Shown: positions 8,462-32,324, counted from the first letter of the stretch. The stretch is DNA of 64,000 nucleotides from Paenibacillus phytohabitans (GCF_013141775.1 NZ_WHOB01000082.1:39922-103921), one strand, 5' to 3'. Made by a program: numbers and translations. Notes: generated by a model from the sequence alone, not told the origin.

Positions 8462-9925
8462 ATGAGTAAACACCGCAGCGGGCGCAGCGCAAGCCGCCGG
8501 GAACAAGGACCGGCTTCTGTCGCCGGACTGCCAGTGAATAAGAATGATGAGGTCCTGCTCGATATTATCGGCATGACGCATGAAGGTGAAGGGGTAGGCC
8601 GTGTAGAGGGCTTTACCCTTTTTGTGCAGGGTGCTCTTCCCGGTGAGAAGGTCCGCGCCAGAGTGCTGAAGACCAAGAAGCAGTATGGCTATGCCAAGCT
8701 GATGGAGCTGGTGCAGGCTAGTCCCGACCGAATAGGGCCGCCATGCCCGATCTATGATCAATGCGGCGGCTGCCAGCTGCAGCATATGGACTATACCGCC
8801 CAGCTGGCGTGGAAACGGCAGCTGGTGGTGGACAACCTGCAGCGGATCGGGAAGCTGCAGGTGGCGGATGCGGCTGACGGTAATGCCGCAACAGCTGAAG
8901 GGACCCGAGTCCTGCCTACCCTTGGCATGGACGAGCCTTGGCGTTACCGCAACAAGGCTCAGGTGCCAATTGGCGTGACCGATGGCGGCCTGGTCGGCGG
9001 CTTCTACGCACGCGGCAGCCACCGGATCATCGACATGGAGACCTGTCTGATTCAGCATGAAGATAATGACAAGGTCGTCGCCACCGTGAAGAGCCTAGGC
9101 CGTGAGCTTGGCATTACCGCCTATGACGAAGAGACCGGCCGCGGGCTGCTGCGCCACGTTGTGGTGAAGAAGGCCTTCCGCACCGGGCAGATGATGCTGG
9201 TGCTGGTAACCAATGGCCGGGATATCCCGCATCTGGATGCCTGGCTCGGCAGTATCCGTGAGCAGCTTCCTGAAGTGGCGAGCATCTGCCAGAACATTAA
9301 CATCCAGAAGACCAATGTAATCTTCGGTAACGATACCCGCGTCTTATGGGGCAGCGATGTGATCTACGACTACATCGGAGATGTGCAGTTCGCTATCTCA
9401 GCACGATCCTTCTATCAGGTGAATCCGGTACAGACCGAGGTACTGTACGGCAGAACCCTGGACTACGCTGCGTTAACCGGCAGCGAGACCGTAATCGACG
9501 CCTACTGCGGCATCGGAACCATCTCGCTGTTCCTGGCCCAGCATGCCGACCAGGTCTACGGTGTAGAAATTGTGCCCGAAGCTATTGAAGACGCCCGGGC
9601 CAATGCCAAGCTTAACCACATGACCAATGTGAAGTTTGAAGTCGGCGCTTCAGAGGATGTCATCCCCGCCTGGAAAGAGCAGGGCATCACCCCGGACGTT
9701 ATCGTCGTCGATCCGCCGCGCAAGGGCTGCGACCCGCGTCTGCTGGAAACGATCCTGCTGATGCAGCCGGAGCGTGTGGTGTATGTATCGTGCAACCCGT
9801 CCACCCTGGCCCGCGATTTGCGGGTCCTGGAAGATGGCGGGTACAGAACCGTGGAGGTCACTCCGGTGGATATGTTCCCGCATACGGTGCATGTGGAGTC
9901 GGTGGCTTGGCTGGAGCGGAAGTAG
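8462..9925 (+). CDS. rlmCD: 23S rRNA (uracil-C5)-methyltransferase RlmCD/RumA: TRAM domain, 4Fe-4S cysteines, SAM methyltransferase. Start ATG 8462 (MSKHRSG...).
   Basis: Cys cluster 'CPIYDQCGGCQLQH', SAM motif 'DAYCGIGTISL', and C-terminal 'DPPRKG'/'VYVSCNP' motifs. Confidence 0.85.
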   Translation: MSKHRSGRSASRREQGPASVAGLPVNKNDEVLLDIIGMTHEGEGVGRVEGFTLFVQGALPGEKVRARVLKTKKQYGYAKLMELVQASPDRIGPPCPIYDQCGGCQLQHMDYTAQLAWKRQLVVDNLQRIGKLQVADAADGNAATAEGTRVLPTLGMDEPWRYRNKAQVPIGVTDGGLVGGFYARGSHRIIDMETCLIQHEDNDKVVATVKSLGRELGITAYDEETGRGLLRHVVVKKAFRTGQMMLVLVTNGRDIPHLDAWLGSIREQLPEVASICQNINIQKTNVIFGNDTRVLWGSDVIYDYIGDVQFAISARSFYQVNPVQTEVLYGRTLDYAALTGSETVIDAYCGIGTISLFLAQHADQVYGVEIVPEAIEDARANAKLNHMTNVKFEVGASEDVIPAWKEQGITPDVIVVDPPRKGCDPRLLETILLMQPERVVYVSCNPSTLARDLRVLEDGGYRTVEVTPVDMFPHTVHVESVAWLERK

Positions 9926-10126
9926 TACAGGGGGAATCCTTTGTGTATCAAGGGTTGTTGCGATGATACAGATGCGTGGAAGTTAGTAGGACAGTGTGTC
10001 CAATTGTACATTGGTGCAAATGTGGTGCAAAAAATAAAGATAATCGCCAGTAACTGGTGATAATTCGACATAAAAGCAAGCAAGAAGACGCTCGGGAATT
10101 GTTCTCCGCAGCGTCTTTATTTTTGC
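9888..10126 (+). repeat. Direct repeat copy A (~239 bp): last 37 nt of rlmCD, its ~190-nt 3' UTR and the terminator. Copy B lies at 12397-12634.
   Basis: The two copies align at roughly 88% identity by eye. They flank the 2.27 kb segment that carries the serine-hydrolase gene. Confidence 0.85.
10085..10125 (+). terminator. Rho-independent terminator AAGACGCT..AGCGTCTT + TATTTTTG.
   Basis: 8-bp perfect stem followed by a T-run. Same left arm 'AAGACGCTCGGGA' as the terminators at 12594 and 32325. Confidence 0.75.
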
Positions 10127-10285
10127 GATTTTGATTTGTTGAGGTATGGCGCAGATCGTGGAAGCGGATATAGCGTAGGTTGTTATTCTGAATGAACTGC
10201 CTGAACCATAGGTAAGTTCGCTCATGATGGAACGGCGATCCGTAGGCTTCTTTGCGTTCTGCGAAGTTCTCATTTCATGAGCAAT

Positions 10286-12163
10286 CTAAAAGTACAAATC
10301 CCAGCCGATGATAAGGGCGCTGAACAGCAATGCTGAAAAGCCGGACAGTGCATATAAGATTGTTCTTCGTTTGCCGTTCTTTTGCTTCCTGAGTTTAAGT
10401 CCAAGCAGTACGATATAACCCGCTGTCAGCACAACATAAACGATGTTCAATATTAGGTGAATGCGAAGGGATGAATAGGTCGACAGGATCAAGGTTCTAT
10501 AGCCCAGGATTGCAGTATTCGCAATAAAGGCAAGTCCTGCAGCATTCATCCAAAGATGGTATTTGTTCAACGGTGCTGGCATTTTTGGTGTTTTTTTAAA
10601 TCTGTGAATGATCCATTTGATCAGGCCGCCAAGAAGAGAAAAGATTATGATTGCTGTACCAAGACTGAATGCAACCAGGGTTATTCGAATACTTTGTGCG
10701 GACAGGCCTGTGAGCGAAAAAAAGTCGTTATACGGGTTCGAGAATTTGATCACTGCTCCCCCGGCATCCCGCACAAAATACATAAATCCAGAACTATAGA
10801 CCGGAACATAAGCATCAGGCGATATTTGGCTCAAGGGCTGGCCGTTATGATTTATATAGGAAGGGTTACTAGCGGTAATCTTCTCAGTATAAAAGAAGTC
10901 ACGGATTTTGGTGAATCCGTGGACCACTCTTCGCGCAGTTATATATTCACCAGCCACCTGTGAACTATCCGGAAGCTCGCCGCTGTAGACTGCGGGCAGG
11001 TAGTTGCCGAACACCTTGTCGACAAGGCCGGTGGTATAGTTCGACTCATTATACTGGTTGGTCATCACTACCATGCCGAAGCCGGATTGCGGGTCCAGCA
11101 CGAACTTGCTTGTGAAGCCGAGCGTATTCCCGGCATGTTCCAGCGCAGGAACAGCATAATTCACTGCAAAAAAACCGTGGGCAATTCTTGGAATGTCAGT
11201 CCCTTCATAGTACAGGCTGGGGGACAGCATTTCCTGTAATGTGGCATTATCGTGGAATAACGGACTGTTACGGCCCGCTGGAGGCAATAGAGCCGCCACG
11301 AATTTCGCTGCGTCCTTTGCTGTTCCTATGGTACTTCCTGCCGGATAAATACTGAGATAGGCTCTATTCTTCTTAATCAGCTTCAGCTTCGTTGTGTATC
11401 CTTGAATTCGGCTTCTCCCTTCGGCAACTGCCGGATTGTCCTGTTGCGCCCAGTGAATGGAGGTATGGTCCATGCCAAGCACTTCAAAGATATGCTTTTG
11501 CACATAGGTATAAAAGGGCATGCCGCTCTGCAGTTCCACAATATAGCCGGCCAGCGCTACTCCGAAATTGGAATAAGCTACAACCTTGCCTGGCGGGTTG
11601 ATCTGCCGGGGTTCAAGGCGCTGAAGTGCGTCTCCAAGTTCAGGGACATCTTCCTCTGCAAAATACCACAAATCAGTGCTCAGCTCCTGCCAGCCCGCGT
11701 TGTGATTCATCAGGTTCAGCAGAGAAACAGGCGTCTCATATTCTAGCTTGCTGAGAAAGCCTTCAGGAAGATATTCACGGATATCCGTCTCCAGATTAAG
11801 CTTCCCCTGCTCAACCAGCTGCATCACGCTGGTCCATACCAGCAGCTTCGTGCAGGAGCCCCACTCAAACACAGTATCTGTATCTGCAGGAACCTGACGC
11901 TCTATGTCTGCAAATCCATACGCTTTATCGAAGAGGGTGTCGCCATCGTTAACCACCGCCACAGACACGGCTGCAGTCGTCGGCTCATAGACAGTTTCAT
12001 GATTATCGGTCAACCCCTCAAGCGAAGACAAGGGTGAGCCGGAAGGAAGCAGAGCTTGCCCTTCCTCAGCTGCATATGCAGGAACTGCCAGCATCAGCAT
12101 AATGACAACAAGCATACTGGCGGAGAACTGCTTAACTCTGTTCCTTCTGTTTTGTTCTCTCAT
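10286..12163 (-). CDS. Serine hydrolase of the beta-lactamase/PBP (class C-like) fold with a signal peptide and C-terminal multi-TM anchor.
   Basis: S-x-x-K motif 'SCTKLL'. N-terminal signal peptide and four hydrophobic C-terminal helices. 625 aa. Confidence 0.7.
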   Translation of the reverse strand: MREQNRRNRVKQFSASMLVVIMLMLAVPAYAAEEGQALLPSGSPLSSLEGLTDNHETVYEPTTAAVSVAVVNDGDTLFDKAYGFADIERQVPADTDTVFEWGSCTKLLVWTSVMQLVEQGKLNLETDIREYLPEGFLSKLEYETPVSLLNLMNHNAGWQELSTDLWYFAEEDVPELGDALQRLEPRQINPPGKVVAYSNFGVALAGYIVELQSGMPFYTYVQKHIFEVLGMDHTSIHWAQQDNPAVAEGRSRIQGYTTKLKLIKKNRAYLSIYPAGSTIGTAKDAAKFVAALLPPAGRNSPLFHDNATLQEMLSPSLYYEGTDIPRIAHGFFAVNYAVPALEHAGNTLGFTSKFVLDPQSGFGMVVMTNQYNESNYTTGLVDKVFGNYLPAVYSGELPDSSQVAGEYITARRVVHGFTKIRDFFYTEKITASNPSYINHNGQPLSQISPDAYVPVYSSGFMYFVRDAGGAVIKFSNPYNDFFSLTGLSAQSIRITLVAFSLGTAIIIFSLLGGLIKWIIHRFKKTPKMPAPLNKYHLWMNAAGLAFIANTAILGYRTLILSTYSSLRIHLILNIVYVVLTAGYIVLLGLKLRKQKNGKRRTILYALSGFSALLFSALIIGWDLYF

Positions 12164-12396
12164 AGGTAAACTCCCTTATATAATTCACATGAATTGAAAC
12201 GTTCTTGAGTATTTCCACAAAATTACATCATATTCCTTCTTTTCTTTATCAGGTTGAACGGTCCAGGTGATAACGAAGAAACTTTTTGATAGGATAGGCC
12301 TTGCCGGGTTTTTGAAAAGCTCCGTATTTATTAGCATCGCGTGGGTTTAGGCATCCCCGTTAATTGTTATTAAATGTGTTGACTCTGCTTACTCTA

Positions 12397-12634
12397 CACA
12401 TGTGGAGTCGGTGGCTTGGCTGGAGCTTAAATAGTACAGTGGAGGGAATCTTTGTGTATCAAGGGTTGTTGCGATGCTACAGATGCGTGGAAGTTAGTAG
12501 AACAGTGAGCCTAAATGTACATTGGTGCAAATGTGGTGCAAAAATCAAGATAATCGCCAGGAACTGGAGATATTTCGACATCAAAGCAAGTAAGAAGACG
12601 CTCGGGAATTACTCCTGAAGCGTCTTTATTTTTG
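12397..12634 (+). repeat. Direct repeat copy B, carrying a 12-codon relic of the rlmCD 3' end and its own terminator copy (12594-12633).
   Basis: See copy A. Contains 'catgtggagtcggtggcttggctggagc' and the AAGACGCTC...GAAGCGTCTT + T-run terminator. Confidence 0.85.
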
Positions 12635-12696
12635 CACTGGTGTTAACATTCGTTAATCTCTGAGGTTAGTAAAAGCAGAATGAGCGTACAATGCAA

Positions 12697-12721
12697 AAAA
12701 AGCCGTGCGCTAACACGGCTC
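12697..12721 (-). terminator. Minus-strand terminator downstream of the LRR gene.
   Basis: Plus-strand A7 followed by hairpin GCCGTG-cgctaa-CACGGC, which reads as hairpin then U-run on the minus strand. Confidence 0.5.
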
Positions 12722-12853
12722 TCTTTGCAATAGCCACTTTTAAGGGCGGTAGGCCGCAACAAACAGGACACGACAGATAGACCGCAACCCCTTGCTGGGA
12801 GAGCGGTCTATTTACGTTTATTGGACAGTAATTTCAGCAGGTATTTTCTGAAA

Positions 12854-14755
12854 TCAATACACGAGCACGCCCGCACCAAGCACGGATGTGTTCAACACGG
12901 AATTGCCGGCCAGAAATACCTTTTGCAGATTAGGCAAGCGGCTTAAGGTTTCTATATTGGAAATGGCATTGTTCTCCAGATGAAGCTCTTCGATGGCCTG
13001 CCACTTGCTCATGAACTCCAGAGAAGCCAAATTGCTGTCTTGCAGGGTGAAGGAACGCAGAGCGGACAGGTTGGAGAAATAAGGAAGCGCCTGGTCAACT
13101 TCACTGACGGAGTTATTGTTTATGCTAAAAGAGGGCCGGTCTAAGGTCAAATGCTCAAGCACGCTGTTCGCCGCGCCTGCCTTTTGGACGAAATCGAGAC
13201 GGCATTCCGAGCATACCAGCGTATTCACCTGCTTCAAACGAAATAAGGCATCGCTCTCCTTATACAGCGACGAATCGTAGATGCTTAGTGTCTTCAGGCG
13301 GGTCAAGTCGTCCAGGGCGTCAAGCTGGGCCATTTCGTCGATGTCCCAGAGGGAAAGCTGCGCAAGCTCCGGAAATTTCCTGAGAGCGGCCATATCGAGC
13401 TCCGCACTTCCGCCCCGGATTGTCAGGGCGGTTACGGCAGGCGCTTTCAGTCCGGGGAGAAAGTCGCCGGGTATTTCGACCTGCCTTACGCCCGGCAATG
13501 TCAGCGCTTCTGCCTTCTCGTAGTACCCGGACAACGTGAATTCCCGCAAAGAGGGCAGGCTGTTCACGGCCGCTACCGAGCTAAGCTGGCTTAAGGAAGC
13601 CAGGCGGAGTGTGGTAATGGAAGTCTTTCCGGCCAGAGGCTTCAGATTGGAAAAATTCAAATTTTCCGTGTCAAGCATTTGCAGAGCAGGCATGTTTTGC
13701 ACAAAGTCGATGGACTTTACATTGGTCAGATAAGAAAGGTGAAGCTCCTGAAGCTGGGTTAAGGCGTACAGCGGCTGCAGGTCTGTGGCTTCACTGTGAT
13801 GGATGGCCAGGGATGACAGCCCGGTCATGGACGATAACCACCCCAGTTCATCGACAAAGGTAAGCGACAGGGACTTCAGCGGCAGCTTATTCAATAAATG
13901 AAAATCCGTCACAGACTCATCCACATAGGTAATGGCCAGAGAGCTTAGATTGGGGAATTCCAGCAACATCGCCAATTCCTGATTGCTGCGAAGCTGGGTG
14001 GTTAGCTCCGTAATTTTAGACTTATCGCCAAAGTAGCGGGAAAATGTGCTGAAGGATTCGTTAAAGGCACCGCCATAGCTTTTTAATCCGGCCATATGGG
14101 CAAACGTTGTTTGGTCCGCCTGGGAGATTTCGTAGGTATCCATCAGGTTCAGTGCCGTCAGCCCCTTAAAGGCTTCGAAATCCCGCTGATCGATCCGCTG
14201 GGTATTCAGTCTTTTGTCCTGGGTAACATAAGTGATCTTCTCGGCCCGCTCATTGCTGAAGGGGTCGGAGAGGCTGTAGGTGAAACGCCACTGGTCATTC
14301 TCCGATTGATCTACGCTTAAATAGCGCAGACGGGCCAATTCTTCTTCTGTCGGCATTGCAGAGCCTTTATCCAAGATCTCCCGCAAAAAGGAGAGCAGGA
14401 CCTCGCTTTCGGGCATCTTCCGCACAGACAGATTGGCTTCTGTTGTGTGCTGAGGGGAGTCTAAGCCGTAATAGAAATAAGTACCGATAGCGCCTGATAT
14501 GACGAGCAACAGGATAAGTACCAGCCTTAGGGGGACGGAGACAGAGACGGACGGCTTTGGCGTGGCCGTGGCCTCAGGAACTGTCCCGTGATAATGGTTA
14601 ATGGTCTGATCCACATAGTAGACATGATTTTGCTTCAATAGAAGCTCTGTATGGCAATAGGGACACTTGAGGATCGTACCTTCCTTGTATTCAATTCTTC
14701 CGCTGCAATTGGGACAGTTTAACGGAATAAATGCCACGAATGCCTCCTCCTTCAT
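12854..14755 (-). CDS. Membrane-anchored leucine-rich-repeat (internalin-like) protein with an N-terminal zinc ribbon.
   Basis: 'CPNCSGR...CPYCHTEL' zinc ribbon, one TM helix, then ~20 LxxLxL LRR units. An alternative GTG start at 14737 has a better RBS. Confidence 0.6.
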   Translation of the reverse strand: MKEEAFVAFIPLNCPNCSGRIEYKEGTILKCPYCHTELLLKQNHVYYVDQTINHYHGTVPEATATPKPSVSVSVPLRLVLILLLVISGAIGTYFYYGLDSPQHTTEANLSVRKMPESEVLLSFLREILDKGSAMPTEEELARLRYLSVDQSENDQWRFTYSLSDPFSNERAEKITYVTQDKRLNTQRIDQRDFEAFKGLTALNLMDTYEISQADQTTFAHMAGLKSYGGAFNESFSTFSRYFGDKSKITELTTQLRSNQELAMLLEFPNLSSLAITYVDESVTDFHLLNKLPLKSLSLTFVDELGWLSSMTGLSSLAIHHSEATDLQPLYALTQLQELHLSYLTNVKSIDFVQNMPALQMLDTENLNFSNLKPLAGKTSITTLRLASLSQLSSVAAVNSLPSLREFTLSGYYEKAEALTLPGVRQVEIPGDFLPGLKAPAVTALTIRGGSAELDMAALRKFPELAQLSLWDIDEMAQLDALDDLTRLKTLSIYDSSLYKESDALFRLKQVNTLVCSECRLDFVQKAGAANSVLEHLTLDRPSFSINNNSVSEVDQALPYFSNLSALRSFTLQDSNLASLEFMSKWQAIEELHLENNAISNIETLSRLPNLQKVFLAGNSVLNTSVLGAGVLVY

Positions 14756-15072
14756 GATGTGATGATGATAAGCTCATCTGAGCTGGCATCTGAGTTTATT
14801 ATACTTCTTTTATTCTATTACACTTTCCAGAGAGGATAGAGCCAGCTGTTGTCAAAAAGCAAGTGATTTGTAGGTGGCTTGGTTGGTGAGGGCAGGTAAA
14901 GGTGATACAGATGGCGGGAGACAGATTTGACATAATATTAATGTGGAAATCCACCAATTTCAACCTATTTCCCCCAAAATGAAAAGAAGCCCCCAGGAAA
15001 CTGCAAGTCCTGGGGGCTTCTTTTTTGTACTTATGTTTCATCATAGAGAATTAATAATGCTTGTTAACGAAC

Positions 15073-16059
15073 TTACCAGGCCCGTCCAGCCTGCATCGTC
15101 AATTGTACCAATTCCTCCAGCAGCTGCTCCTCCAGACTGATGATTTCACACATTCTTCTATGAATCTTCTCCCGCCCGGCCGGCTTATTGCCGGAGCACA
15201 TCACCTTGATCATGAATTGATTAATCAGATCCCACTGCTCTCCTGCATGACGGTAGCCCTCCGCGGCCCGGGAGAGTGCAGGTACAGAAGCCTCGCGGTT
15301 AAGCAGCTGCAGGAACTGGCTGAACCGGATCCGGCTGATGGGCAGGGCGTTGGCGTACAGCTTGAAGCGGGAACCGGCCTCGGCAGAATTATCGGCGGGG
15401 ATTCCTGTATGCAGATAGGTCCCGGCATAGGATCTGAGGTTAGCAGGAACCTCGCCCGGCTGAACCTGATTGGTTGGATCTGTCAGCATTCCTTGAAGCG
15501 TAGTCTGCCAATCCGTGTATGAATGCGTAGACTCACAACGGTCAAATAAGGCATAGAAATGGCAGGCCTGCTCAAGGATATCGAAATCTATTGCTTCAAG
15601 CTCTTTGCCATAGTAGGCATCCGTCAGATAGATGATGTTACCGGGCCGGTCCAGTCCAACAGCGAGACAGGCATGGCTGGTATGCAGCCTGCGGAAGGCC
15701 ACACACCAGGGGCAGTCATAAGAATCGAAGCCGACCAGCACCGGCATTCCCGAAGACAGCCGGCTCTCCAGAAGGTCAAGCATAAAGTCCTTATCCATCG
15801 CCGGCCCCTTCCGTTCAATATAATGGAATAGAAGGCCATGATACGCAGATAGGGATTCTGTACTGATCCGCGGCAGCACTAACCGCTCAATTAACGGCTG
15901 ATCCGGGGACTGCTGTTCTGCAAAGGACATCTGCCAGGCATTGCCGTACATGCACTTGCTGTCCTTGCCCTGCCACTCTGCAACAGACTGGATACAGTCA
16001 TCAATACAGCTGCGCAGGGTAGGATAGGGCGTACTTTTAATGGGAGCAATGTTCAGCAC
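15073..16059 (-). CDS. Hypothetical protein, possibly BtrH_N/DUF4872-like (papain-like acyl/aminoacyl transferase fold). Overlaps the 3' end of the AraC gene by 23 bp.
   Basis: ~330 aa with an N-terminal Cys-containing segment 'LRSCIDDCIQS'. The family call comes from length, architecture and context (adjacent carrier protein plus ATP-grasp). Not verified. Confidence 0.35.
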   Translation of the reverse strand: MLNIAPIKSTPYPTLRSCIDDCIQSVAEWQGKDSKCMYGNAWQMSFAEQQSPDQPLIERLVLPRISTESLSAYHGLLFHYIERKGPAMDKDFMLDLLESRLSSGMPVLVGFDSYDCPWCVAFRRLHTSHACLAVGLDRPGNIIYLTDAYYGKELEAIDFDILEQACHFYALFDRCESTHSYTDWQTTLQGMLTDPTNQVQPGEVPANLRSYAGTYLHTGIPADNSAEAGSRFKLYANALPISRIRFSQFLQLLNREASVPALSRAAEGYRHAGEQWDLINQFMIKVMCSGNKPAGREKIHRRMCEIISLEEQLLEELVQLTMQAGRAW

Positions 16060-16996
16060 TGCTCATCATCTCCTTTGCCGACAAAAAGTGACTCTGCAAC
16101 CGGTTTCGATAAGAGGCAGGAGTCATACCGCTATATTCACGAAATAGCCGGTAAAAATATTTCATGTCATAAATTCCGACCTCCAGGGCAATGGACTGTA
16201 TCCCAAGCTCTGTGAACATCAGCAGGAGGCAGCTATATTTCATGCGGATTTCCTGGAGCATCTGGATATAGGACCTGCCGGTCTTAATTTTGAATAATCT
16301 CTGAAACTGGCGGGAGCTCACCGCAATCTGGCGGCTCATCTCCTTCAGTGTGATTTTCTCTCTGAAATGACTGATCATATACAGGATGACGTCATGCAGC
16401 GGATCATAGTCTATTTCGGGCTGCTGAGCGAACGGAAGGGCGGCTGCGGGCATTATGAGGTCTGCGAGTTCAAATAGCAACGGGTATAGCTGCTGTTCGT
16501 CCCCAAGTGAGCCGCAGCTCTGCATCTCATGCATACGGCGGAGCAATAAGGCCAGCTCCATGCTGCTCTCCCTATACCCGAACCATTGCTTGACCTCCAG
16601 AAGCTCCAGGAGCGGGAACATCTCTTCTTCAGAAAAGGGTTCCGGCAGCCTCCTGAGCATCCTGCCAAGCTCAGGCCTGAGCATACAATTGTAGATGAGG
16701 AGCGGCTCTGCACCGGTCAGATCCTGCGGCTGGAAGACATGGGAAACCCCGGGCGGTATAACTAACAAATCCCCTTGCATAACCTGCATTTTATCCTCAT
16801 CCGCTTGGTGGATGCCTTCCCCCTGAACCACATAGGCGAGCTCTACAAAATCGTGCTGATGACGTACGGAAGTGACCGTTTCCTGAGTCAGGAGCATTTG
16901 TACCGGCGAACAGGAGTCAAATAGATATTCCCCAGTAAAGACCGGAAAAACTTCCATAACACAAACCTCCGTTTCCTGCTTCCTTAAGATAGACAT
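16037..16996 (-). CDS. AraC-family transcriptional regulator with an N-terminal cupin ligand-binding domain and C-terminal HTH.
   Basis: Cupin segment 'HQHDFVELAYVVQGEG'. C-terminal AraC HTH 'ITLKEMSRQIAVSSRQFQRLFK...YFYRLFREYSGMTPASYR'. Confidence 0.85.
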   Translation of the reverse strand: MSILRKQETEVCVMEVFPVFTGEYLFDSCSPVQMLLTQETVTSVRHQHDFVELAYVVQGEGIHQADEDKMQVMQGDLLVIPPGVSHVFQPQDLTGAEPLLIYNCMLRPELGRMLRRLPEPFSEEEMFPLLELLEVKQWFGYRESSMELALLLRRMHEMQSCGSLGDEQQLYPLLFELADLIMPAAALPFAQQPEIDYDPLHDVILYMISHFREKITLKEMSRQIAVSSRQFQRLFKIKTGRSYIQMLQEIRMKYSCLLLMFTELGIQSIALEVGIYDMKYFYRLFREYSGMTPASYRNRLQSHFLSAKEMMSSAEHCSH

Positions 16997-17114
16997 CTGG
17001 AATCCATCCTAGTATATCTGAATATTTTGGCGTATTCAACCATATATTAACAGTCTGCTATTTGGTATATTCATCCTATTCATTCCTATCATGCCTACTG
17101 AAAGGGGTATACAC

Positions 17115-17357
17115 ATGCAGCAAAAGGTTATTGAGATTATCGCGGAAATCAAGGAGGAGCCGGGCCTGCGTCAGACGCTGAGCGGAGCTTCCGATCTGAC
17201 GCTGGACGCCGCACTGGATTCGCTGCAAATCATCAACTTTATTCTGAGAATCGAAGATGAATTCGATGTCGAAGTAGACTTTGATACCTTTGATCTTGAG
17301 CATTTGAAATCGGTGGACCGCTTCTCCGCGTATGTCGCCGAGCTTGCTGTACGATGA
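17115..17357 (+). CDS. Acyl/peptidyl carrier protein with a phosphopantetheine attachment site.
   Basis: 80 aa, acidic, with 'LDAALDSLQI' (DSL serine). AAAGGGG RBS. Its stop overlaps the next gene's ATG (ATGA). Confidence 0.75.
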   Translation: MQQKVIEIIAEIKEEPGLRQTLSGASDLTLDAALDSLQIINFILRIEDEFDVEVDFDTFDLEHLKSVDRFSAYVAELAVR

Positions 17358-18703
17358 AGCACGCTGTACACTGCGGCAGCCTGGAGTCGGAACGGTACTG
17401 GCGGGAGGAAGACCTGGCTGCGCTGCCATCCGTTCCTGATGCGAAGGCTCTGGCTATCGTGCAGGCCATGGATGAACTGCTGTTTGTCTTCTGCGGGAGC
17501 GGAGATATTCTATTAACCCGCCATGGGATGGACAAGGCTCAATATGACTATCTGCAATCTCTCAATTATTCATTCAAGACCAATATGAATCCTTTAACCC
17601 TGGGCGTGGAGGCACCTGGCACAGCACAGAACGCACTGAATGCAATGAATGTATTCGAGCTGCTGGGCAGGCTGAACCCCGGGCAGGAGCCGGACAGGTT
17701 AATACCGGAAGGAGCATGGCTTGAGCCCTTTGCCGTGCTTCCCGGAACGCATGAGGCGGTTAAGCGGTATAAGCTTCAGCCCGCTCTCCCGGATGAACAG
17801 ACTGTGCGCAAAGTGAACACCAAAACCTACTCTGCTGCTATGCGGGACAGGCTGCTGCTGCCGAATATCGCTGTTGTTGTCCATAGCGCGGAAGAGCTGC
17901 TGCAATCCGGACAAGCGCTGCTGGAGAAGGGGGCTTTTCTGATCAAGGATGAGTATGGTGTATCCGGCAAAGGCAATCAGCTCGTGGACACTGAGCGGAT
18001 ATTGCGCCGGATTGCCGGGTACCTGGAATCCAGCCGGAACCAGGACAAACGAATAAAGTTTGTGCTCGAACCGCTGCTGGACCGGGAGACCGACTTCTCC
18101 TGCCAATTTCACATTGATCCGGAAGGCCGGATCTCGATATTGTCCGTTCAGCAGCTGGTCAACCATGGCTTTGCCTTCGGAGAGTCCCACTCCCCGGAGC
18201 CGGCTCTGCTCGAAAGGCTGGACCGGGAAGACTATTGGGAGATCATGCACAGCATTGGGCGGGAGCTGTATGCAGACGGTTACTTCGGTGATGTATGCGT
18301 GGATTCCATGCTGCTGCGTGACGGAAGCCTCGCCCCTCTGGTCGAGATCAATGCCCGGAAGTCGATGAGTCTGATCAAGCATAATGTAGACCGCCAGCTC
18401 AAGCAGGAAGGAATGCATACCTGCCTGTTACAGGTGCCGCTGGCAACCATGGGCGAGGTTCATTATGCAGAGCTGCTGGGGCGGCTTGAGCGGGAAGGCA
18501 TATTATTTTCGCTGGGAGCGGGGGAAGGCGTGATTCCGTTGGCTTCGGGCACACTCCAGCCTCCTGACCCGTCCCGGTCTGCCGGTTCCACTAAGGGCAA
18601 GCTGTATGCCGCACTCGCTTACCGGGATGAAGACAGCAAGCACAGACTCACCCGCAAGCTGGACGAATCGCTTCTGCGCTCGGGCTACACTATACTGCGA
18701 TAA
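17354..18703 (+). CDS. ATP-grasp family ligase, putative carrier-protein aminoacyl/carboxylate ligase (BtrJ-like role).
   Basis: Glycine-rich loop 'LIKDEYGVSGKGNQL' and Mg-binding 'LVEINARKSMS' (E-x-N-x-R). 449 aa. Translationally coupled to the carrier protein. Confidence 0.6.
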   Translation: MKHAVHCGSLESERYWREEDLAALPSVPDAKALAIVQAMDELLFVFCGSGDILLTRHGMDKAQYDYLQSLNYSFKTNMNPLTLGVEAPGTAQNALNAMNVFELLGRLNPGQEPDRLIPEGAWLEPFAVLPGTHEAVKRYKLQPALPDEQTVRKVNTKTYSAAMRDRLLLPNIAVVVHSAEELLQSGQALLEKGAFLIKDEYGVSGKGNQLVDTERILRRIAGYLESSRNQDKRIKFVLEPLLDRETDFSCQFHIDPEGRISILSVQQLVNHGFAFGESHSPEPALLERLDREDYWEIMHSIGRELYADGYFGDVCVDSMLLRDGSLAPLVEINARKSMSLIKHNVDRQLKQEGMHTCLLQVPLATMGEVHYAELLGRLEREGILFSLGAGEGVIPLASGTLQPPDPSRSAGSTKGKLYAALAYRDEDSKHRLTRKLDESLLRSGYTILR

Positions 18704-18719
18704 AGAAAGGGACCCTCCA

Positions 18720-19841
18720 ATGAATAACACCGTGACGATTCTATGCTCTGGTTTTGGTCTGGGCTTCTATGTCCCCGGCCTGCTGATGGAACGGAGACTT
18801 ACCGCACTTGGCATCCAGGCGGAGATTGAGGTTTTTGAAACACTCATGTCCGACAGCAAAAAACAGCAGACAGACAACAGCCGCAAAGCGTACCAGCAGA
18901 GCTTTGCCGTAGCCTTGACCTCGCAGAAAATACCGGGTGATATCCGGGGCAGCCTGGATGCTGCGGCCGTGGAACATTTATTACAGCAATGGAAGCAGGA
19001 AGAACGGCAGCGCTTCATTGTATTATCCGGGCATTGGGTGCATGTCATGGACAGGTACCGTGAACTGGCCGGCTTTCCTGTGGAGGCTGACCTGCTCTAT
19101 ATTGATGCCGACCTCTCGCCGTCATGGAAGAATCTCCGCAGGCTGAATCCCGGTTACGCGGAAGGCTACCGCGAAGTAATTATGTATGACCCTGCGGCAA
19201 GGGAGATTCTATGCAGCATAGATGCCGGACCCGCGGAGGCATTGCCCGCTGCGGCCAGGAACGGGAGACTGGTTGTTCATGGCGGCGGCTGGGGAATTGG
19301 CACCTTCCGTGAGAAGTTTGATAGCCTGGAGTCGGCAGGGTATGAACTGGATATAGCCTCATACAGTCCTCAGGAGATTGGAGAGGCCGTCCATGGAAGA
19401 CGTTATTATATGAACGATCCGGAGTGGCGGACCTGGAAGCGTGACAGCAGCGGGCAGTATACCTTCCCGCCTTTTGCAGAAGTAACCGTCAGCCAGCCGG
19501 ACCGCTATCCGCCCTGCCGTAACTACCAGGACGGGATGTATGGCGTCATCCGTCAGGCATTCGCAGTTATCAGCAAGCCCGGTGGAGGCGCCCTGATTGA
19601 TTCACTGGCCTCAGGCACACCGCTGGTGCTGCTGGACCCTTTCGGCCCGCATGAGAAGATTAACAGCGATCTGTGGGTAGAGCTTGGGTACGGCATCCGG
19701 TACGGGGAGTGGGCCGAGATGGGCTTTGACCGTGAGGCACTGCGGAAGCTGGCGGACAACCTCCAGTCAGCCAAGGGCCGGTACCCGGATTATGCGGCAA
19801 GCTATGCGGAGCAGCTATCCGCAGCAGAAGGGAGAAGCTAA
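18720..19841 (+). CDS. GT-B glycosyltransferase, GT28/MGDG-synthase/UgtP-like.
   Basis: C-terminal 'ISKPGGGALIDSLASGTPLVLLDPFGPHEKINSDL' matches the MurG/UgtP donor-binding region. The N-terminal 'ILCSGFGLGF' occupies the position of the GxGH loop but lacks the His. Confidence 0.6.
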   Translation: MNNTVTILCSGFGLGFYVPGLLMERRLTALGIQAEIEVFETLMSDSKKQQTDNSRKAYQQSFAVALTSQKIPGDIRGSLDAAAVEHLLQQWKQEERQRFIVLSGHWVHVMDRYRELAGFPVEADLLYIDADLSPSWKNLRRLNPGYAEGYREVIMYDPAAREILCSIDAGPAEALPAAARNGRLVVHGGGWGIGTFREKFDSLESAGYELDIASYSPQEIGEAVHGRRYYMNDPEWRTWKRDSSGQYTFPPFAEVTVSQPDRYPPCRNYQDGMYGVIRQAFAVISKPGGGALIDSLASGTPLVLLDPFGPHEKINSDLWVELGYGIRYGEWAEMGFDREALRKLADNLQSAKGRYPDYAASYAEQLSAAEGRS

Positions 19842-21034
19842 TGCAGCCTACCAGTAGAGTGAGCCTGGACGCCAAGTCCTTTGAGGCCCTGAAACGTACG
19901 ATTAAGAATGTGGTGGTCCCGCACAGGGAACGCAAGCTAGATCCAGGGTTCAAAACCGTTATGCCGGAGATTATGTCCCTGAAGCTGACCAACCGCTGTA
20001 ATCTCCGCTGCAAGCATTGCTACCAGTGGAATGAATCCGGCTATCATCATGATATGGACACCGCCGAGCAGAACCTCGATATGGATGTGGAGATGATCCG
20101 GAGGCTGCTGGAGGAGACGGATGAAGCGCAGTCCCGCCTGTATTTATGGGGCGGCGAGCCGCTGTTTCACCGGGATACCAAGCAGATTCTGGAGCTCCTG
20201 CAAGAGCATCCCCGGGACACCACGATCTGTACCAATGCCTATCTGATTCCTAAGTATGAAGAGGAGCTGTGTGCAATCTCCGACAACCTGGAGCTGCTGA
20301 TTCCGATCGAGGGGTTCGAGGCGGAGCATGATTTGCTGCGCGGCAAAGGTTCCTTTCAGAAGGTGATCGAGAGCGTCGAACGGCTGCTCGAGCTGCGCAG
20401 GCAAGGCCGCTTCCGCGGCCGGATCTCTGTGCACAATGTGATTAATGACAATATGATCGGCAGATTGTATGAGCTGGTGGAGTTTTTTGAGCACAAGGGC
20501 GTCGATCTGGTACTGCTCTGCTTCCCGTGGTATATCTCTGCGGACACCAGCCTGGAAATGGACCGGTTCTACGATGAGCACTTCCAGTGGCTGGCGGAGC
20601 TTCCGCCGGATCACCGGAGCAGCTGGCATGCCTTCAAATACCATATCAAACCGGAGAATGTCACAAGGCTGACCGAAGACCTGAAGCGGATCAACAGCAA
20701 CACCTGGCATAATACCCGAATCCGTTACCAGCCGGGGCTCGACTTTGATGAAATCGAGGATTTTGTGGCGGGCAAGCCGATGCTCTCCCGCAGTACATCG
20801 AAATGTCTGGCGCTCAGTACCCGGGTGGATATTGCTCCGAACGGGATGGTGAGTGCCTGCAAATTTTTTGGCGAGCTGGCCATTGGCAATGTGAAGGAGC
20901 AACCGCTGACGGAAATATGGAATTCAGCCCGCTACGACAGGCTGCGGCGGATTCTGGATGAAGGCTTGTCGCCGGCCTGCTCCAAATGCAATGTGCTGTA
21001 CCTGAATACCTATGCTGCCCTGACGCATGTATGA
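19841..21034 (+). CDS. Radical SAM enzyme with a C-terminal SPASM/twitch auxiliary-cluster domain.
   Basis: 'CNLRCKHCY' CxxxCxxC motif. C-terminal Cys-rich 'SACKFF...CSKCNV'. Start overlaps the upstream stop (TAATG). Confidence 0.8.
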   Translation: MQPTSRVSLDAKSFEALKRTIKNVVVPHRERKLDPGFKTVMPEIMSLKLTNRCNLRCKHCYQWNESGYHHDMDTAEQNLDMDVEMIRRLLEETDEAQSRLYLWGGEPLFHRDTKQILELLQEHPRDTTICTNAYLIPKYEEELCAISDNLELLIPIEGFEAEHDLLRGKGSFQKVIESVERLLELRRQGRFRGRISVHNVINDNMIGRLYELVEFFEHKGVDLVLLCFPWYISADTSLEMDRFYDEHFQWLAELPPDHRSSWHAFKYHIKPENVTRLTEDLKRINSNTWHNTRIRYQPGLDFDEIEDFVAGKPMLSRSTSKCLALSTRVDIAPNGMVSACKFFGELAIGNVKEQPLTEIWNSARYDRLRRILDEGLSPACSKCNVLYLNTYAALTHV

Positions 21035-22044
21035 AGAACGGGTGTGATCAGCCTGCCTATAGGCTCGGTATCCTGGGTGCCTCGAATATTGCTGTACCCG
21101 CCATGCTGGAGCCAGCGCGGGTTGTGGAGAAGGTGCGGATAGCTGCAATCGCCAACCGGACATTGGAAAAGGCAGTGAAACTGGCGGAGGCTTACCAGAT
21201 TCCTTATGTGGCGGGCAGTCTGGAGGAGCTGCTGGAGCTTGGCGGTCTGGATGGGGTATATATTGCACTCAGCAATGAGCTTCATGCAGAATGGGCATTC
21301 CGGGCATTGGAGGCGGGGAAGCATGTATTGGTAGAAAAGCCGATGTGCCTGCATCCCGAAGAAGCTGAACGGTTACGGCTGGTAAAAGAAAGCTCCGCCG
21401 CTCCGAAGCTCGCCGAAGGTCTCATGATTGCCTTCCACCCCTGGCAGCAGGCGCTTAAGTCCATAGTCGACTCCGGGCAATTCGGCCCGCTCTATAAGAT
21501 CAGTACAAGAATATCCGTACCTGCCAAGGACAGATATGCCGGGAATTACCGCAGTGTCAAGGCGAAGGGCGGAGGTGCTTTTGCCGATCTGGGCTGCTAT
21601 TGGCTGCAGTTTCTGCAGACCCTTATCGGTCTTCAGCCCAGTGAAATCAGGGCGAAGTCTGCTTTTGACGGGCCGGAGGGCTGTGATTGGACCTTTCAGG
21701 CGGCGCTGCAATATGAGAACGGTCTGGAAGCTGAATGTCTGACTTCCTTCGAGCTGCCCTTCCGGGCTTCGCATACCCTGCATTTCGCGCAGACAGTGCT
21801 GACGGTCCCGGATTTCTTCCGGCCGGTCAAAGGCTTCTACAAAATCAAAATACGGCATGATCTGCCGGACAACCGCAGCACCCTGTGTGAATTCGAGCCG
21901 ATGAACTATTATGTCAATCAGCTGGAGGCTTTCGCAGAAATAATGAGCGGGCAAAAGGCGGAGAAGCTGGAAGCTACATGGGAACGGGTACACCTGCAAT
22001 CCCTGATCATGGCCGAGGCGCAGCAGCACCGGGTTTATCTATGA
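21031..22044 (+). CDS. Gfo/Idh/MocA-family NAD(P)-dependent oxidoreductase.
   Basis: Rossmann N-terminus 'LGILGASNIAVPA' and 'GKHVLVEKPM' motif. ATGA overlap with the radical SAM gene. Confidence 0.8.
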   Translation: MKNGCDQPAYRLGILGASNIAVPAMLEPARVVEKVRIAAIANRTLEKAVKLAEAYQIPYVAGSLEELLELGGLDGVYIALSNELHAEWAFRALEAGKHVLVEKPMCLHPEEAERLRLVKESSAAPKLAEGLMIAFHPWQQALKSIVDSGQFGPLYKISTRISVPAKDRYAGNYRSVKAKGGGAFADLGCYWLQFLQTLIGLQPSEIRAKSAFDGPEGCDWTFQAALQYENGLEAECLTSFELPFRASHTLHFAQTVLTVPDFFRPVKGFYKIKIRHDLPDNRSTLCEFEPMNYYVNQLEAFAEIMSGQKAEKLEATWERVHLQSLIMAEAQQHRVYL

Positions 22045-22114
22045 AGTAGCAATCTGCCCCTGGCCCAAACGTCAAAACAGCGATTCTCCATCATCGGAGA
22101 GTCGCTGTTTGTTG

Positions 22115-22912
22115 TTAACGGTCCTGCAAGGAAGGAGGCTGCTCTATCCAAGAGCGCTCGTTGCTCACCACATAAATGCCCAGCGCCTGCTCGAAGGTAA
22201 GGCCGTGATTATAGAAAGCCAGCACCTTCGCGGCGAAGCGCATACTCTTATCTGCGCCGGGCGACTGCAGCAGCTCTGCAGCGAGCTTACGGAAGTCCTT
22301 CGGCTTAGCTTCTGCAGCCTCAACAGCATCCAGCAGCCCCTTGTGGCTTGGAAAGAGCATCCGGTTATAGGCCAGGATCATTCGCCCGCTGAAGAAGACC
22401 AGGTTGCTGGCCGTGTGAGCGAGCAGGTAGGCGTCGTTCTTCCGGGCCGCTTCTTTGGCGAAATAGAAAGCATACAGGAAGATCTGGGCGCAAAAGTCCC
22501 GCAGATTGTGTTCCCGGTTCTCTTCAGGATAGATTGGGATTCGGGCAACCAGCTCGCCCAGCTCCGGGATTCTGGAGAATAGTACATCCGATCCGGTAAA
22601 AGCATACCTCGTCGGCTCGTTGCCCCGCCCCGCGGCAAGCTCCAGGAACCGGAGGTTGATCACTTTGATATCGGCGTAACCGCCTTCATAGGTACTGACT
22701 TCCCGGTCTACGTAGGACAGCCTATTCTTCCGGTCATACTCTTCATAGGCCTCATCGGTGAATACCAGATGAACATCCACATCCGAGGTCTCCTTGGCGG
22801 TTCCCTGGGCTACCGAACCGCTGGTGATTACTGCCAGGCAGGAAGGGTCCTTCGCCTGCTTCTCCACCAGCTTCTCCAGCGTCTGTCTATGGTGCGCATA
22901 CATCTCTTTCAT
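22115..22912 (-). CDS. Pol-beta-superfamily nucleotidyltransferase (aminoglycoside/lincosamide nucleotidyltransferase-like).
   Basis: 'ITSGSVAQGTAKETSDVDVHLVF' matches the G[SG]...SD[IV]D nucleotidyltransferase signature, followed by a helical C-terminal domain. Confidence 0.6.
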   Translation of the reverse strand: MKEMYAHHRQTLEKLVEKQAKDPSCLAVITSGSVAQGTAKETSDVDVHLVFTDEAYEEYDRKNRLSYVDREVSTYEGGYADIKVINLRFLELAAGRGNEPTRYAFTGSDVLFSRIPELGELVARIPIYPEENREHNLRDFCAQIFLYAFYFAKEAARKNDAYLLAHTASNLVFFSGRMILAYNRMLFPSHKGLLDAVEAAEAKPKDFRKLAAELLQSPGADKSMRFAAKVLAFYNHGLTFEQALGIYVVSNERSWIEQPPSLQDR

Positions 22913-22984
22913 CCTCCCTTAACGTGCTCCTGCACATTAAGCGTAACCATTAGACAGCTCACCAGCTATGGTCAATTCAGACAT

Positions 22985-24649
22985 TTAGGGTTCAATTCCG
23001 TAGATCAGCTGGCCTTGATGATAAATCGTGATGTGGTCATTCGCGGCGTAGCTGATGATGGCGGGCTGGAATGAGTAGTCATTAGCCTGGTTGAGATTCG
23101 CCCAATTCGTGTTGTGAATGCGGAACTGAATATCTCCGGTTGTGCCGGAAGCTGCGAGTGAGCCAGCACCTGCCGTGAACCCGATCTCCGCATAAGTATC
23201 TGCACCTGTTCGCGGTGTAGCCAAGGGGACGATTTGCGTCAGCAATTTTTCTTTGCCGATGACCGCGTAATCAAATTCCAGGGTCTGTGCAGCATTCCCA
23301 TCTCTGTTGTACCAATAACGTATCGTAAGCTCATTCAGCGGAATAGAGGTGCCGGATTCGTTCTTCAGCTGTAGACTCGCCCGGATTGAGCCCACGGCCG
23401 TCCCCGTCTCACCGGCACGGTAGAGCAGTGTGGCATGAGGGTCGCCAGATCCGGGGCCTTCACCGGGTCCGCCAGGATCACCAATAGGGGTGAAGGTGAC
23501 CGGCTTCATAATAAGGTCCAGCATAGCCTGCTTCGGCGCATTCCAGGAGGTCCAGTCATCCAGCAGCAGTCCGCCGGTGTCTCCGCTGTTCGGATTCAGA
23601 CTCCAGTACGTCCAGTAGAGATTGTTCTGGCCGATGTAGCTTACAAGCGCATGCTGCCATTTCCCTTCCGCCGAGAGGGTATCTACGCTGCGCCCGCCGA
23701 ATTCTCCGGCAAGAACCGGGGCAATTTGTTCCTTGCTGATGTATCCCCAGGTATCATCCCACAGCTTCGGCAGATTATTGGGGAAGTCGGCAGCACTGAA
23801 CCAGGTCTGTGAGGCAACGCCGGGACCATAATCATGCGGGGAATAGACCACCCGGTCCGGTACAGTAAGCGTGACCGGGTAATTACGCACGCCTGTCAGA
23901 TTACCGCCCCACCAATAGCTGCTGGAGTTGCCCTGAACGTTGGTCTCAATGCCTTCGACAATAATGAGCCAGTTCGGATTCGCGGCGAGAATGGCATTGC
24001 CTGCCCGTTGACTGGCCAGCCGCCAGTCTGTGGCAGGATTACCTGTTCCCCAGCTTGCCGTACCATGCGGTTCGTTATGCAGGTCGGCTCCAATGACGGT
24101 AGGATTATCTGCATAGCGCTGGGCCAGCATCACCCAGTCACTGATCCAGCGGGTTTCGGGATAGGCCGCAGTATACCACAGCGCTGATTGTCCGCCGGAG
24201 TCCGGCCGGTGCCGGTCAAGGAAGATCCGGATGCCGCGGTTTCCGGCTTTCTCAATCAGTTTATCCATAATCTGCACCGGCGTAAGGCCGGCCAGATCAG
24301 GATTTTTGGCATAATCGATACTATTGGCTGCAGAGCCTGCATCGAACATCTGGTTGCAGTAGGGCAGCCGGATCAGGTTATAGCCTTCCGTCTTGATCTG
24401 GTCGAGCACATCATCCATGGAACGGGACCACAGCCCATGCGGAGAGTAATTCGCGGTTTCGAAGCCAAACCAGTTCAGTCCGTTGAATACGGCCGGATTC
24501 CCGGCGGAATCCACGATTTTGTTGCCTGAGGTGTGATAATAGCCTGCTGCACCTTCAGCCTTCACTTCATAACCCGGATACGCATAAGCACCTGCCAGCA
24601 ATATCAAAGCTGCAAACCATACACCCAACTTCCGGAACCCGAACGACAT
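22985..24649 (-). CDS. Secreted GH5 endoglucanase (cellulase) with a C-terminal CBM3 module.
   Basis: Signal peptide, catalytic 'HNEPHG' (acid/base) and 'LAGEFGG' (nucleophile). C-terminal 'LTIRYWYNRDG' CBM3 hallmark. Confidence 0.85.
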   Translation of the reverse strand: MSFGFRKLGVWFAALILLAGAYAYPGYEVKAEGAAGYYHTSGNKIVDSAGNPAVFNGLNWFGFETANYSPHGLWSRSMDDVLDQIKTEGYNLIRLPYCNQMFDAGSAANSIDYAKNPDLAGLTPVQIMDKLIEKAGNRGIRIFLDRHRPDSGGQSALWYTAAYPETRWISDWVMLAQRYADNPTVIGADLHNEPHGTASWGTGNPATDWRLASQRAGNAILAANPNWLIIVEGIETNVQGNSSSYWWGGNLTGVRNYPVTLTVPDRVVYSPHDYGPGVASQTWFSAADFPNNLPKLWDDTWGYISKEQIAPVLAGEFGGRSVDTLSAEGKWQHALVSYIGQNNLYWTYWSLNPNSGDTGGLLLDDWTSWNAPKQAMLDLIMKPVTFTPIGDPGGPGEGPGSGDPHATLLYRAGETGTAVGSIRASLQLKNESGTSIPLNELTIRYWYNRDGNAAQTLEFDYAVIGKEKLLTQIVPLATPRTGADTYAEIGFTAGAGSLAASGTTGDIQFRIHNTNWANLNQANDYSFQPAIISYAANDHITIYHQGQLIYGIEP

Positions 24650-24863
24650 CCATTTTCCTCCTCTTAGTGATTTCAGTGAGGTCAGACTTTATAGCATACG
24701 ATCCGAATGTTAACGTATTCATCTGGATTAGGATGAATTATGAATAATTGGAAACGTTTATGTTAATTCGCATTTGGGATATATTCGGAAATTGAAAAAG
24801 CACAGGGCAGCCGTAGAGCCGCCCTGTGCTAATTGCAGTTGGGGTAAGTTGGGGGAGAAGAAG

Positions 24864-32297: not shown

Positions 32298-32324
32298 TAG
32301 GGTTATCTTCATAAAAGAAGGAGA

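Follow-up and report, generated by a model that had tools for sequence, protein, structure and literature searches.

The rlmCD gene, encoding a 23S rRNA uracil-5-methyltransferase, lies intact in a stretch of 64,000 nucleotides (nt) of the Paenibacillus phytohabitans genome (GCF_013141775.1, NZ_WHOB01000082.1:39922-103921; hereafter the window, from whose first letter positions are counted) and is followed by two long direct repeats that enclose a serine-hydrolase gene and, beyond them, by a gene encoding a leucine-rich repeat (LRR) protein (Table 1). The two repeat copies, A (9890-10126) and B (12399-12636), have 89% identity over 240 aligned positions (blastn E 6e-85), are the same in their leading 28 nt and are separated by an interval of 2272 nt; a 24-nt repeat probe had two matches in the window, copies A and B, against none expected from shuffled sequence. 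Each copy starts with the last 12 codons of rlmCD, so that both ends of the unit carry the 3' end of this gene. Copy A consists of these codons in the intact gene and ~200 nt of downstream sequence, ending in a strong hairpin with a T-run, and copy B opens with the relic CAT GTG GAG TCG GTG GCT TGG CTG GAG CTT AAA TAG, which reads HVESVAWLELK*. The original prediction, which described ~239-bp direct repeats bracketing a serine-hydrolase gene, is borne out by the two copies and the PF00144 gene between them; the 12-codon relic that it noted in copy B is also present, its string having left out the K.

Regarding the surroundings of the gene, a comparison of the RlmCD protein with one genome per species yielded 80 Paenibacillus loci (best identities 90-91%); these and the further loci compared below are labelled L followed by a number. 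The gene order cbiX-dagK-rlmCD is conserved in these loci, barring a few in which cbiX or dagK was not detected or the contig was cut, and the gene content downstream of rlmCD varies from species to species. In 12 of the 80 species loci, the gene encoding the tRNA-dihydrouridine synthase (dus) was found at a distance of 0.6-9 kb downstream of rlmCD, the gap in L057 being only ~580 nt; dus is thus the next conserved core gene after rlmCD, and positions 9926-26470 of the window represent a variable hot spot and not core genome. In L091, L089 and L095, an LRR gene is the nearest gene called beyond rlmCD if open reading frame (ORF) calls of 16 and 90 amino acids (aa) are disregarded, and in L016, L023 and L029 it directly follows the rlmCD stop codon. 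The LRR gene is the resident neighbour 3' of rlmCD in this clade.

The interval between the repeats had been thought to hold only a membrane-anchored SxxK hydrolase. The hydrolase gene is indeed there on the minus strand, but two features had been missed, namely a relic of a tyrosine integrase (10134-10250) and a sequence of 57 nt (12342-12398), termed here the P arm. The relic is 80.6% identical to residues 318-353 of the integrase of L054 (tblastn, E 2.7e-14) and sits in the expected orientation between the terminator of copy A and the stop codon of the hydrolase gene, exactly the position in which intact orthologues are found in L054, L074, L078 and L037. In L081, a 3.6-kb Logan contig with a hydrolase 92% identical to that of the window, a different piece of the same integrase was detected, the C-terminal end with an in-frame stop, which joins the hydrolase at the same point as in the window and is followed by a terminator of the copy A type. 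No integrase relic was detected 3' of copy B in tblastn searches with the integrases at E values up to 10.

Counterparts of the P arm with 87-88% identity lie in L004 (18308-18364) and L001 (19714-19767); as a profile search with this arm drifted into rlmCD coding sequence, only its top matches were used. Both counterparts run straight into a displaced rlmCD relic starting with CATGTGGAG and are therefore right-hand attachment (attR) junctions; in L004, a left-hand attachment site (attL, 11597-11833) and attR (18308-18385) flank a 6.7-kb island without an integrase. Conserved element arms shared with other members of the group are therefore found inside both ends of the unit, the P arm at its right end and, at its left end, the part of copy A beyond the 28-nt core, termed the P' arm. 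Together with copy B, the P arm forms a P-O-P' junction (O being the core) that resembles the attachment site of a circular element (attP). The complete order in the window is rlmCD, core, P' arm (A), integrase relic, hydrolase gene with ~180 nt of upstream DNA, P arm, core, P' arm (B), spacer and LRR gene.

Investigation of the sequence 3' of rlmCD in other species revealed a close association with integrase genes. A profile built from the ~190 nt 3' of the rlmCD stop codon matched 13 of the 80 species loci, always directly 3' of the rlmCD stop codon or of a displaced rlmCD tail. Genes encoding a full-length tyrosine integrase (PF00589 and PF14659, E 1e-29 to 1e-31) adjoin this arm on the opposite strand in L054, L074, L078 and L037, and in L054 the stop codon of the integrase gene falls inside the terminator of the arm. 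Integrases of this family are also encoded next to rlmCD in L046, L013, L006 and L002 (where the gene is split) and farther downstream of it in L007 and L061. The elements in L054 and L074, the two with intact integrases whose genes were examined, look like prophages, the former having genes for a cI-like helix-turn-helix protein, a primase/DUF3987 protein, an HNH protein, a small terminase subunit and ClpP, and the latter for Phg_2220_C and a DnaB-like helicase. No attR was detected within the 10-kb flanks of the intact prophages in L054, L074, L037, L046, L013 and L006, in which it presumably lies farther out.

The P' arm has a conserved order of motifs, comprising three (T)ACAG motifs, the first two of which flank a hairpin, a 9-10-mer repeated directly in tandem, a second hairpin, ATAATTCGACATAAAAG and a terminator. 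Both units of the tandem repeat change together between lineages (TGATGTGAA, TGGTGCAAA and TTGTTGACG), and the repeated motifs may be protein-binding sites of the arm type, for integrase (Int) and excisionase (Xis). The closest integrases among deposited phages are those of the Brevibacillus phages Abouo and Davies (52% identity), and the non-coding DNA adjoining the integrase gene of Abouo has the layout of the arm, with three occurrences of TATAACAG, a hairpin and a tandem 9-mer. This region of Abouo (KC595517.1, about 24367-24787; L096, 2340-2760), in which the tandem repeat is TTGTTGACG, also holds ACGGGTTGCTATGGCA, which resembles the core of the rlmCD tail and suggests that Abouo may target rlmCD in Brevibacillus as well. 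The P-O-P' junction itself had no match in deposited phage genomes by blastn; the search with the integrase protein recovered relatives at no more than 52% identity. A variant of the P' arm in L087 and L089 (~12390-12400, compared with window positions 9914-9983) lacks 62 nt, deleted exactly between GGAAGT direct repeats, which alters the C-terminus of RlmCD; L089 also lacks the terminator hairpin.

The ~190-nt sequence could instead be a small-RNA gene or a structured element of the 3' untranslated region (UTR) present in two paralogous copies, possibly phage-encoded and coexisting with an attachment function. Consistent with an RNA, folding is better in both copies than in shuffled sequence (z = -3.6 and -2.9), some of the changes in the conserved local hairpins are two-sided or turn G-U into A-U pairs, and an intrinsic terminator on the plus strand ends each copy. 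Searches of Rfam 15, however, gave no match in the window at the gathering score and none over the repeat body at E values up to 10 with lax filters, a match to mir-4850 over the terminator of copy B (E 3.3) being at chance level, and the RNAalifold consensus across six species was weak (-6.6 kcal/mol) with an unfavourable covariation term. An upstream promoter was not found by a consensus scan for promoters and terminators that was itself uninformative, since it missed the evident terminator, whose loop exceeds 8 nt. The conserved parts are short blocks of primary sequence and direct repeats whose units vary in concert between lineages, as is more usual in DNA bound by proteins, and the tight link of the arm to integrase genes also argues against this explanation, which we regard as decidedly improbable.

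Regarding the target site, displaced rlmCD tails beginning exactly at CATGTGGAG, the same base at which the core of copy A starts, were found in about 18 of the 80 species loci, where at least four unrelated classes of left-hand arm precede them. The islands at these tails carry genes encoding serine recombinases (L061 and L066), tyrosine integrases and type I restriction-modification systems, and the hot-spot islands also hold genes for an AbiEii-like ATPase, a WYL regulator and a pPIWI-associated nuclease. A search for attR sites in flanking DNA recovered attL/attR pairs only in L078 and L072; the paired sites have in common a block, CCGCATACG, located just upstream of CATGTGGAG, which would place the crossover zone at approximately window positions 9877-9906 and no more narrowly than that. 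The use of this left edge by many unrelated islands is difficult to reconcile with the footprint of a transposon or insertion sequence, in which the repeats would be a target-site duplication or the terminal repeats of a composite transposon carrying the hydrolase. The presence of a single cargo gene between direct repeats would suit such an element, but neither a transposase gene between the repeats nor significant inverted repeats at the ends of the segment were seen, and 239 bp at 89% identity is far beyond the range of target-site duplications, as the original prediction had also recognized. A transposon origin is thus extremely improbable.

Close relatives were identified by an exact look-up of the DagK protein in public assemblies, which returned ten loci with DagK identical to that of the window; exact look-ups of the hydrolase and LRR proteins of the window in public assemblies returned no match. 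In nine of the ten loci, dagK and rlmCD match the window at 97-98% identity as far as positions 9903-9923, beyond which the rlmCD tails and the DNA downstream fall into at least five different kinds, as predicted if integrated elements replace the end of the gene. Between rlmCD and the LRR gene, these sister loci carry a GNAT gene, a GH32 gene with a methyltransferase gene, a gene for a 1859-aa AAA_22 protein, a GmrSD-like gene or a Gabija-like pair encoding OLD/TOPRIM and UvrD proteins. The view that the repeat duplicates the real end of rlmCD together with a native 3' UTR and terminator is contradicted by this splitting of near-identical genes and by the integrase genes next to the arm in L054, L074, L078 and L037; both copies consist of an element-derived core and P' arm.

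The tenth locus, L091 (CP009285.1, which we take to be Paenibacillus borealis DSM 13188), is more distant, with 95.5% identity through dagK and about 90% through rlmCD. Its gene order is rlmCD, one copy of the repeat, spacer, LRR gene, a gene for a 328-aa protein, an AraC regulator gene and a radical-SAM cluster, and it is collinear with window positions 12399-16100 at 93.9% identity. The hydrolase segment is therefore an insertion relative to this empty-site allele, and the hydrolase is likewise missing between rlmCD and the LRR gene in L089 and L095; the minimal gap between rlmCD and dus in L057 represents a further unoccupied allele. The comparison proposed in the original prediction, of whether the LRR gene follows rlmCD in relatives without the hydrolase, thus finds such an order in L091, L089 and L095, and its placing of an insertion between the two genes is confirmed.

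The single copy in L091 is a hybrid with an A-type left and a B-type right half, its bases being of the A type at all 13 informative sites between 9918 and 10004 and of the B type at 9 of the 11 between 10036 and 10109 (Fisher p = 4e-5), with 97.9% identity to the right half of copy B. The one-copy and two-copy alleles thus differ by one reciprocal crossover at approximately 10005-10036, inside the P' arm. Two histories fit this pattern, either a homologous pop-out between copies A and B in the lineage of L091 or the entry of a circle carrying the P-O-P' junction, integrase relic and hydrolase into a single-copy ancestor by Campbell-type homologous recombination; a third possibility, integration by an integrase with subsequent gene conversion, is less economical.

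These relatives also bear on an origin by segmental duplication, in which the native rlmCD tail, 3' UTR and terminator would have been duplicated when the hydrolase was inserted or captured, without site-specific recombination. Such a duplication would accord with the status of the hydrolase segment as an insertion relative to L091, L089 and L095, and with the hybrid copy in L091, which shows that homologous recombination has acted on the repeat. The copies are, however, 11% apart, against 97-98% identity of the adjacent rlmCD DNA between strains, and therefore do not represent a recent duplicate. The association of the presumed UTR with intact integrase genes, tested in other species, was found there, and an integrase relic and a conserved P arm lie exactly where an integrated element would place them. 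Segmental duplication is therefore quite improbable as the source of the repeats.

Regarding the hydrolase, the protein of 625 aa has a PF00144 match (E 3e-55, residues 64-372) with the catalytic motifs SxxK (GSCTK) and YxN (YSN) expected of this MEROPS S12-like family, an N-terminal hydrophobic anchor and several C-terminal hydrophobic segments, which are probably membrane segments. Its best matches in the PDB are proteins of the 'beta-lactamase family', LACTB, D-aminopeptidase-like enzymes and ClbP, its relatives there also including D-amino-acid amidase and FmtA, and database annotations of its homologues differ (for example, CubicO peptidase, D-aminopeptidase and PbpX). Paenibacillus has many homologues (1090 matches at E up to 1e-30), which occur in at least three unrelated genomic contexts, GntR-XFP-hydrolase-MatE (L085 and L097), dus-MazEF-MFS-hydrolase-GNAT-APH (L082; MFS, major facilitator superfamily) and the rlmCD-dus hot spot (window, L081 and L004). 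The description of the gene as a captured beta-lactamase was thus an overstatement for a member of a widespread Paenibacillus PF00144 family. The upstream region at 12164-12341, which has similar counterparts in L082 and L081, travels with the hydrolase gene, and the gene is accessory DNA, not part of the core genome. The window and L004 have in common the order hydrolase, 328-aa gene, AraC regulator, radical-SAM cluster and MFS gene, on the basis of which the hydrolase was considered as a native neighbour of rlmCD; this was rejected as closer relatives show the LRR gene to be the resident.

Taken together, the repeats are very probably the attachment-site scars of tyrosine-integrase elements that target rlmCD, with the hydrolase lying in the gutted remains of one of these elements, which is in tandem with an older element's scar. 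The conserved end of rlmCD around CATGTGGAGTCGGTGGC would serve as the bacterial attachment site (attB) for temperate phages and related elements of Paenibacillus, each incoming element supplying a replacement rlmCD tail and a P' arm of ~210 nt between the crossover point and its own integrase gene, convergent on rlmCD; the terminator of the arm could serve both genes. Copy B would be the arm of the older element, whose integrase has been wholly lost, beside the resident LRR gene. Copy A would be the arm of another member of the family, now reduced to the P' arm, the 39-codon integrase relic, the hydrolase transcription unit and the P arm, and the P arm against copy B would give the P-O-P' junction expected between tandemly integrated elements. 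The arrangement of attL, integrase relic, hydrolase and P-O-P' junction is a signature of tandem accretion followed by decay. With cores on both sides (at 9890 and 12399) and its own integration and transfer genes gone, except for 39 codons of the integrase, the gutted 2.5-kb unit is like a cis-mobilizable element (CIME). The order of these events and the route by which the hydrolase became the sole cargo are those that we infer.

Several points weigh against this interpretation. The location of the crossover at 9877-9906 is deduced from where blocks of identity begin and end, and the binding-site role of the arm motifs from their architecture. The P arm of the window is recognizable over only ~57 nt, compared with ~130 nt in L004 and L001. 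The exchange that separates the window from L091 lies in the middle of the P' arm and not at the presumed core, so that either the latest event was homologous or gene conversion has blurred the record. The L004 homologue of the hydrolase (78% aa identity) lies outside the island bounded by attL and attR, and those of L082, L085 and L097 are in other contexts; the hydrolase may thus have been original cargo or a later capture. Current mobility is unsupported, as neither an intact integrase nor an excisionase is present in the 64-kb window. It is rather unlikely that the 2.5-kb unit is a still-active miniature CIME, excised and reinserted by the integrases of resident or infecting prophages that target rlmCD and so shuttling the hydrolase between Paenibacillus strains, with a P' arm that might also act as a phage-supplied 3' UTR or small RNA altering rlmCD expression in lysogens.

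Table 1. Positions of features at and beyond the rlmCD locus in the window.
Feature	Position	Strand	Basis or remark
rlmCD (23S rRNA uracil-5-methyltransferase), intact	8462-9925	+	Pfam TRAM and tRNA_U5-meth_tr; start placed from the gene call in the near-identical locus L086
Minimal shared core CATGTGGAGTCGGTGGC	9890-9906	+	Within the last 12 rlmCD codons, ~36 nt ahead of the stop
Core (O) of copy A	9890-9917	+	28 nt, the same in copies A and B
P' arm of copy A	9918-10126	+	Profile matches at rlmCD tails; intact integrase adjoining in relatives
(T)ACAG motifs, copy A arm	9926-9930, 9967-9971, 9991-9994	+	
Hairpin CCTTTGTGTATCAAGG, copy A arm	about 9938-9953	+	
Tandem TGGTGCAAA, copy A arm	10012-10020, 10023-10031	+	
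Second hairpin, copy A arm	10043-10061	+	
ATAATTCGACATAAAAG, copy A arm	10060-10076	+	
Terminator of copy A	10084-10125		Could serve both strands
Tyrosine-integrase relic EAYGSPFHHERTYLWFRQFIQNNNLRYIRFHDLRHTSTN	10134-10250	-	39 codons with HDLRHT box; tblastn and translation
PF00144 serine hydrolase, beta-lactamase/penicillin-binding protein fold, 625 aa	10286-12163	-	Sole intact gene between the repeats
Hydrolase upstream region	12164-12341	-	69.5% over 223 nt to L082; 81% over 91 nt to L081
P arm GGGTTTAGGCATCCCCGTTAATTGTTATTAAATGTGTTGACTCTGCTTACTCTACA	12342-12398	+	Abuts the core of copy B
Core of copy B with relic HVESVAWLELK*	12399-12426	+	
P' arm of copy B	up to 12636	+	
Terminator of copy B	~12594-12635		
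Spacer, copy B to LRR gene	12637-12853	none	Collinear with L091
First spacer hairpin	~12697-12730		Could terminate both strands
Second spacer hairpin	~12768-12812		
LRR protein gene	12854-14755	-	Pfam LRR_4 and LRR_8
dus (tRNA-dihydrouridine synthase)	26471-27460	+	Conserved core gene, right edge

Regarding known systems, many phages and islands integrate by the lambda-type (Campbell) route with arm-type sites and enter the 3' ends of tRNA, tmRNA or protein-coding genes, restoring them. The rlmCD elements are like lambda-type systems in the location of the core in the 3' end of a gene, the tail supplied by the element, the integrase gene beside the P' arm, the short repeated motifs in both arms and the imperfect direct repeats, in which the crossover zone is marked by the left edge. 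Unlike in those systems, the binding of the integrase to the motifs is here presumed, and the element is a 2.5-kb relic. The Phi-m46.1 phage family also uses rumA/rlmCD, rumA being the rlmCD homologue.

Integrative conjugative elements (ICEs) and integrative mobilizable elements (IMEs) of streptococci and clostridia integrate into rumA (Ambroset et al., 2016, PMC4701971; Guedon et al., 2017, PMC5704250), using serine integrases with direct repeats of 2-21 bp and altering or disrupting the gene (PMC4701971). The same family of housekeeping genes thus serves as an integration target in Firmicutes in both cases, and serine recombinases were also found at the Paenibacillus hot spot (L061 and L066). 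In contrast to the rumA elements, the main family in Paenibacillus has tyrosine integrases, inserts ~36 nt from the stop codon, provides an in-frame replacement tail and has long arms.

Both CIMEs and tandem accretion at attachment sites are treated as established in those parts of PMC5704250 that cite Pavlovic (2004) and Bellanger (2011), an example described there being the islands related to ICESt1 and ICESt3 at the 3' end of fda in Streptococcus thermophilus. Like the fda CIMEs, the unit in P. phytohabitans has flanking repeats of the attachment-site type, a lost integrase, a cargo gene between the attachment sites and an internal P-O-P' junction, and stands at the 3' end of a conserved gene, where another element has left a scar in tandem with it. 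It differs from them in that the parent elements resemble temperate phages or satellites and not ICEs, in its host (Paenibacillus) and target (rlmCD), and in that the last detectable exchange was homologous and inside an arm, not at the core.

Other observations concern the hot spot in relatives. Accretion in several layers was seen in L061 (11551-20868) and in P. silagei (L002, 11524-18570). In L061, an island with serine and tyrosine recombinases and a type I restriction-modification system lies between rlmCD and an older relic with its P' arm and integrase. In P. silagei, two rlmCD relics follow each other, and the distal one has a short arm, the stop codon running straight into GTGATAATTCGACATAAAAG without the 135-nt section of (T)ACAG motifs and tandem repeat. 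Candidate anti-phage defence genes were found at the rlmCD hot spot in L093 (7151-10905), L090 (13821-17808), L086 (14470-20049), L052 (12138-13121), L061 (16685-20232) and L002 (14621-16826), and include a Gabija-like pair of OLD-TOPRIM and UvrD genes and genes for a GmrSD_N protein, the 1859-aa AAA_22 protein, a pPIWI-associated nuclease, type I restriction-modification and an AbiEii-like ATPase. In relatives, the rlmCD site behaves as a defence-island hot spot.

In the window itself, part of the spacer (12752-12828) is homologous to DNA 3' of a displaced rlmCD relic in L010. Downstream of the LRR gene, a conserved accessory cluster (15073-22912; compare L084, 1181-8995, and L087, L089, L091 and L095) comprises genes encoding the 328-aa protein, which has no known function, the AraC regulator, a small PP-binding (carrier) protein, two unassigned proteins (449 and ~373 aa), a radical-SAM/SPASM enzyme, a GFO/IDH/MocA oxidoreductase and a nucleotidyltransferase. 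This cluster has 85-94% identity in Paenibacillus sp. 22594 and resembles a small biosynthetic cluster, possibly for a ribosomally synthesized and post-translationally modified peptide (RiPP) or a modified metabolite. An ORF of 554 aa (22985-24649, minus strand) between the genes for the nucleotidyltransferase and an MFS transporter has no counterpart in the otherwise syntenic L084, which points to another local insertion in the hot-spot interval. A 50-nt sequence at 32310-32359, 79% similar to the terminator part of copy A, is probably another intrinsic terminator of like sequence.

The insertion and decay of integrase-carrying elements, as seen at rlmCD, is an ordinary and known route of genomic-island formation and, as a mechanism, is not new; the known logic of CIMEs and accretion is found here in another genus, with a family of tyrosine-integrase phages and with the end of the gene restored in frame. 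A 239-bp repeat thereby becomes a readable record of events, and the end of rlmCD emerges as a busy landing site for phages and islands in Paenibacillus, used by at least four classes of arms and by both tyrosine and serine recombinases. For annotation, this means that the 3' UTR and last codons of rlmCD are supplied by elements and vary between strains, and that the core CATGTGGAGTCGGTGGC on the left and dus on the right can serve as landmarks of islands in Paenibacillus genomes.

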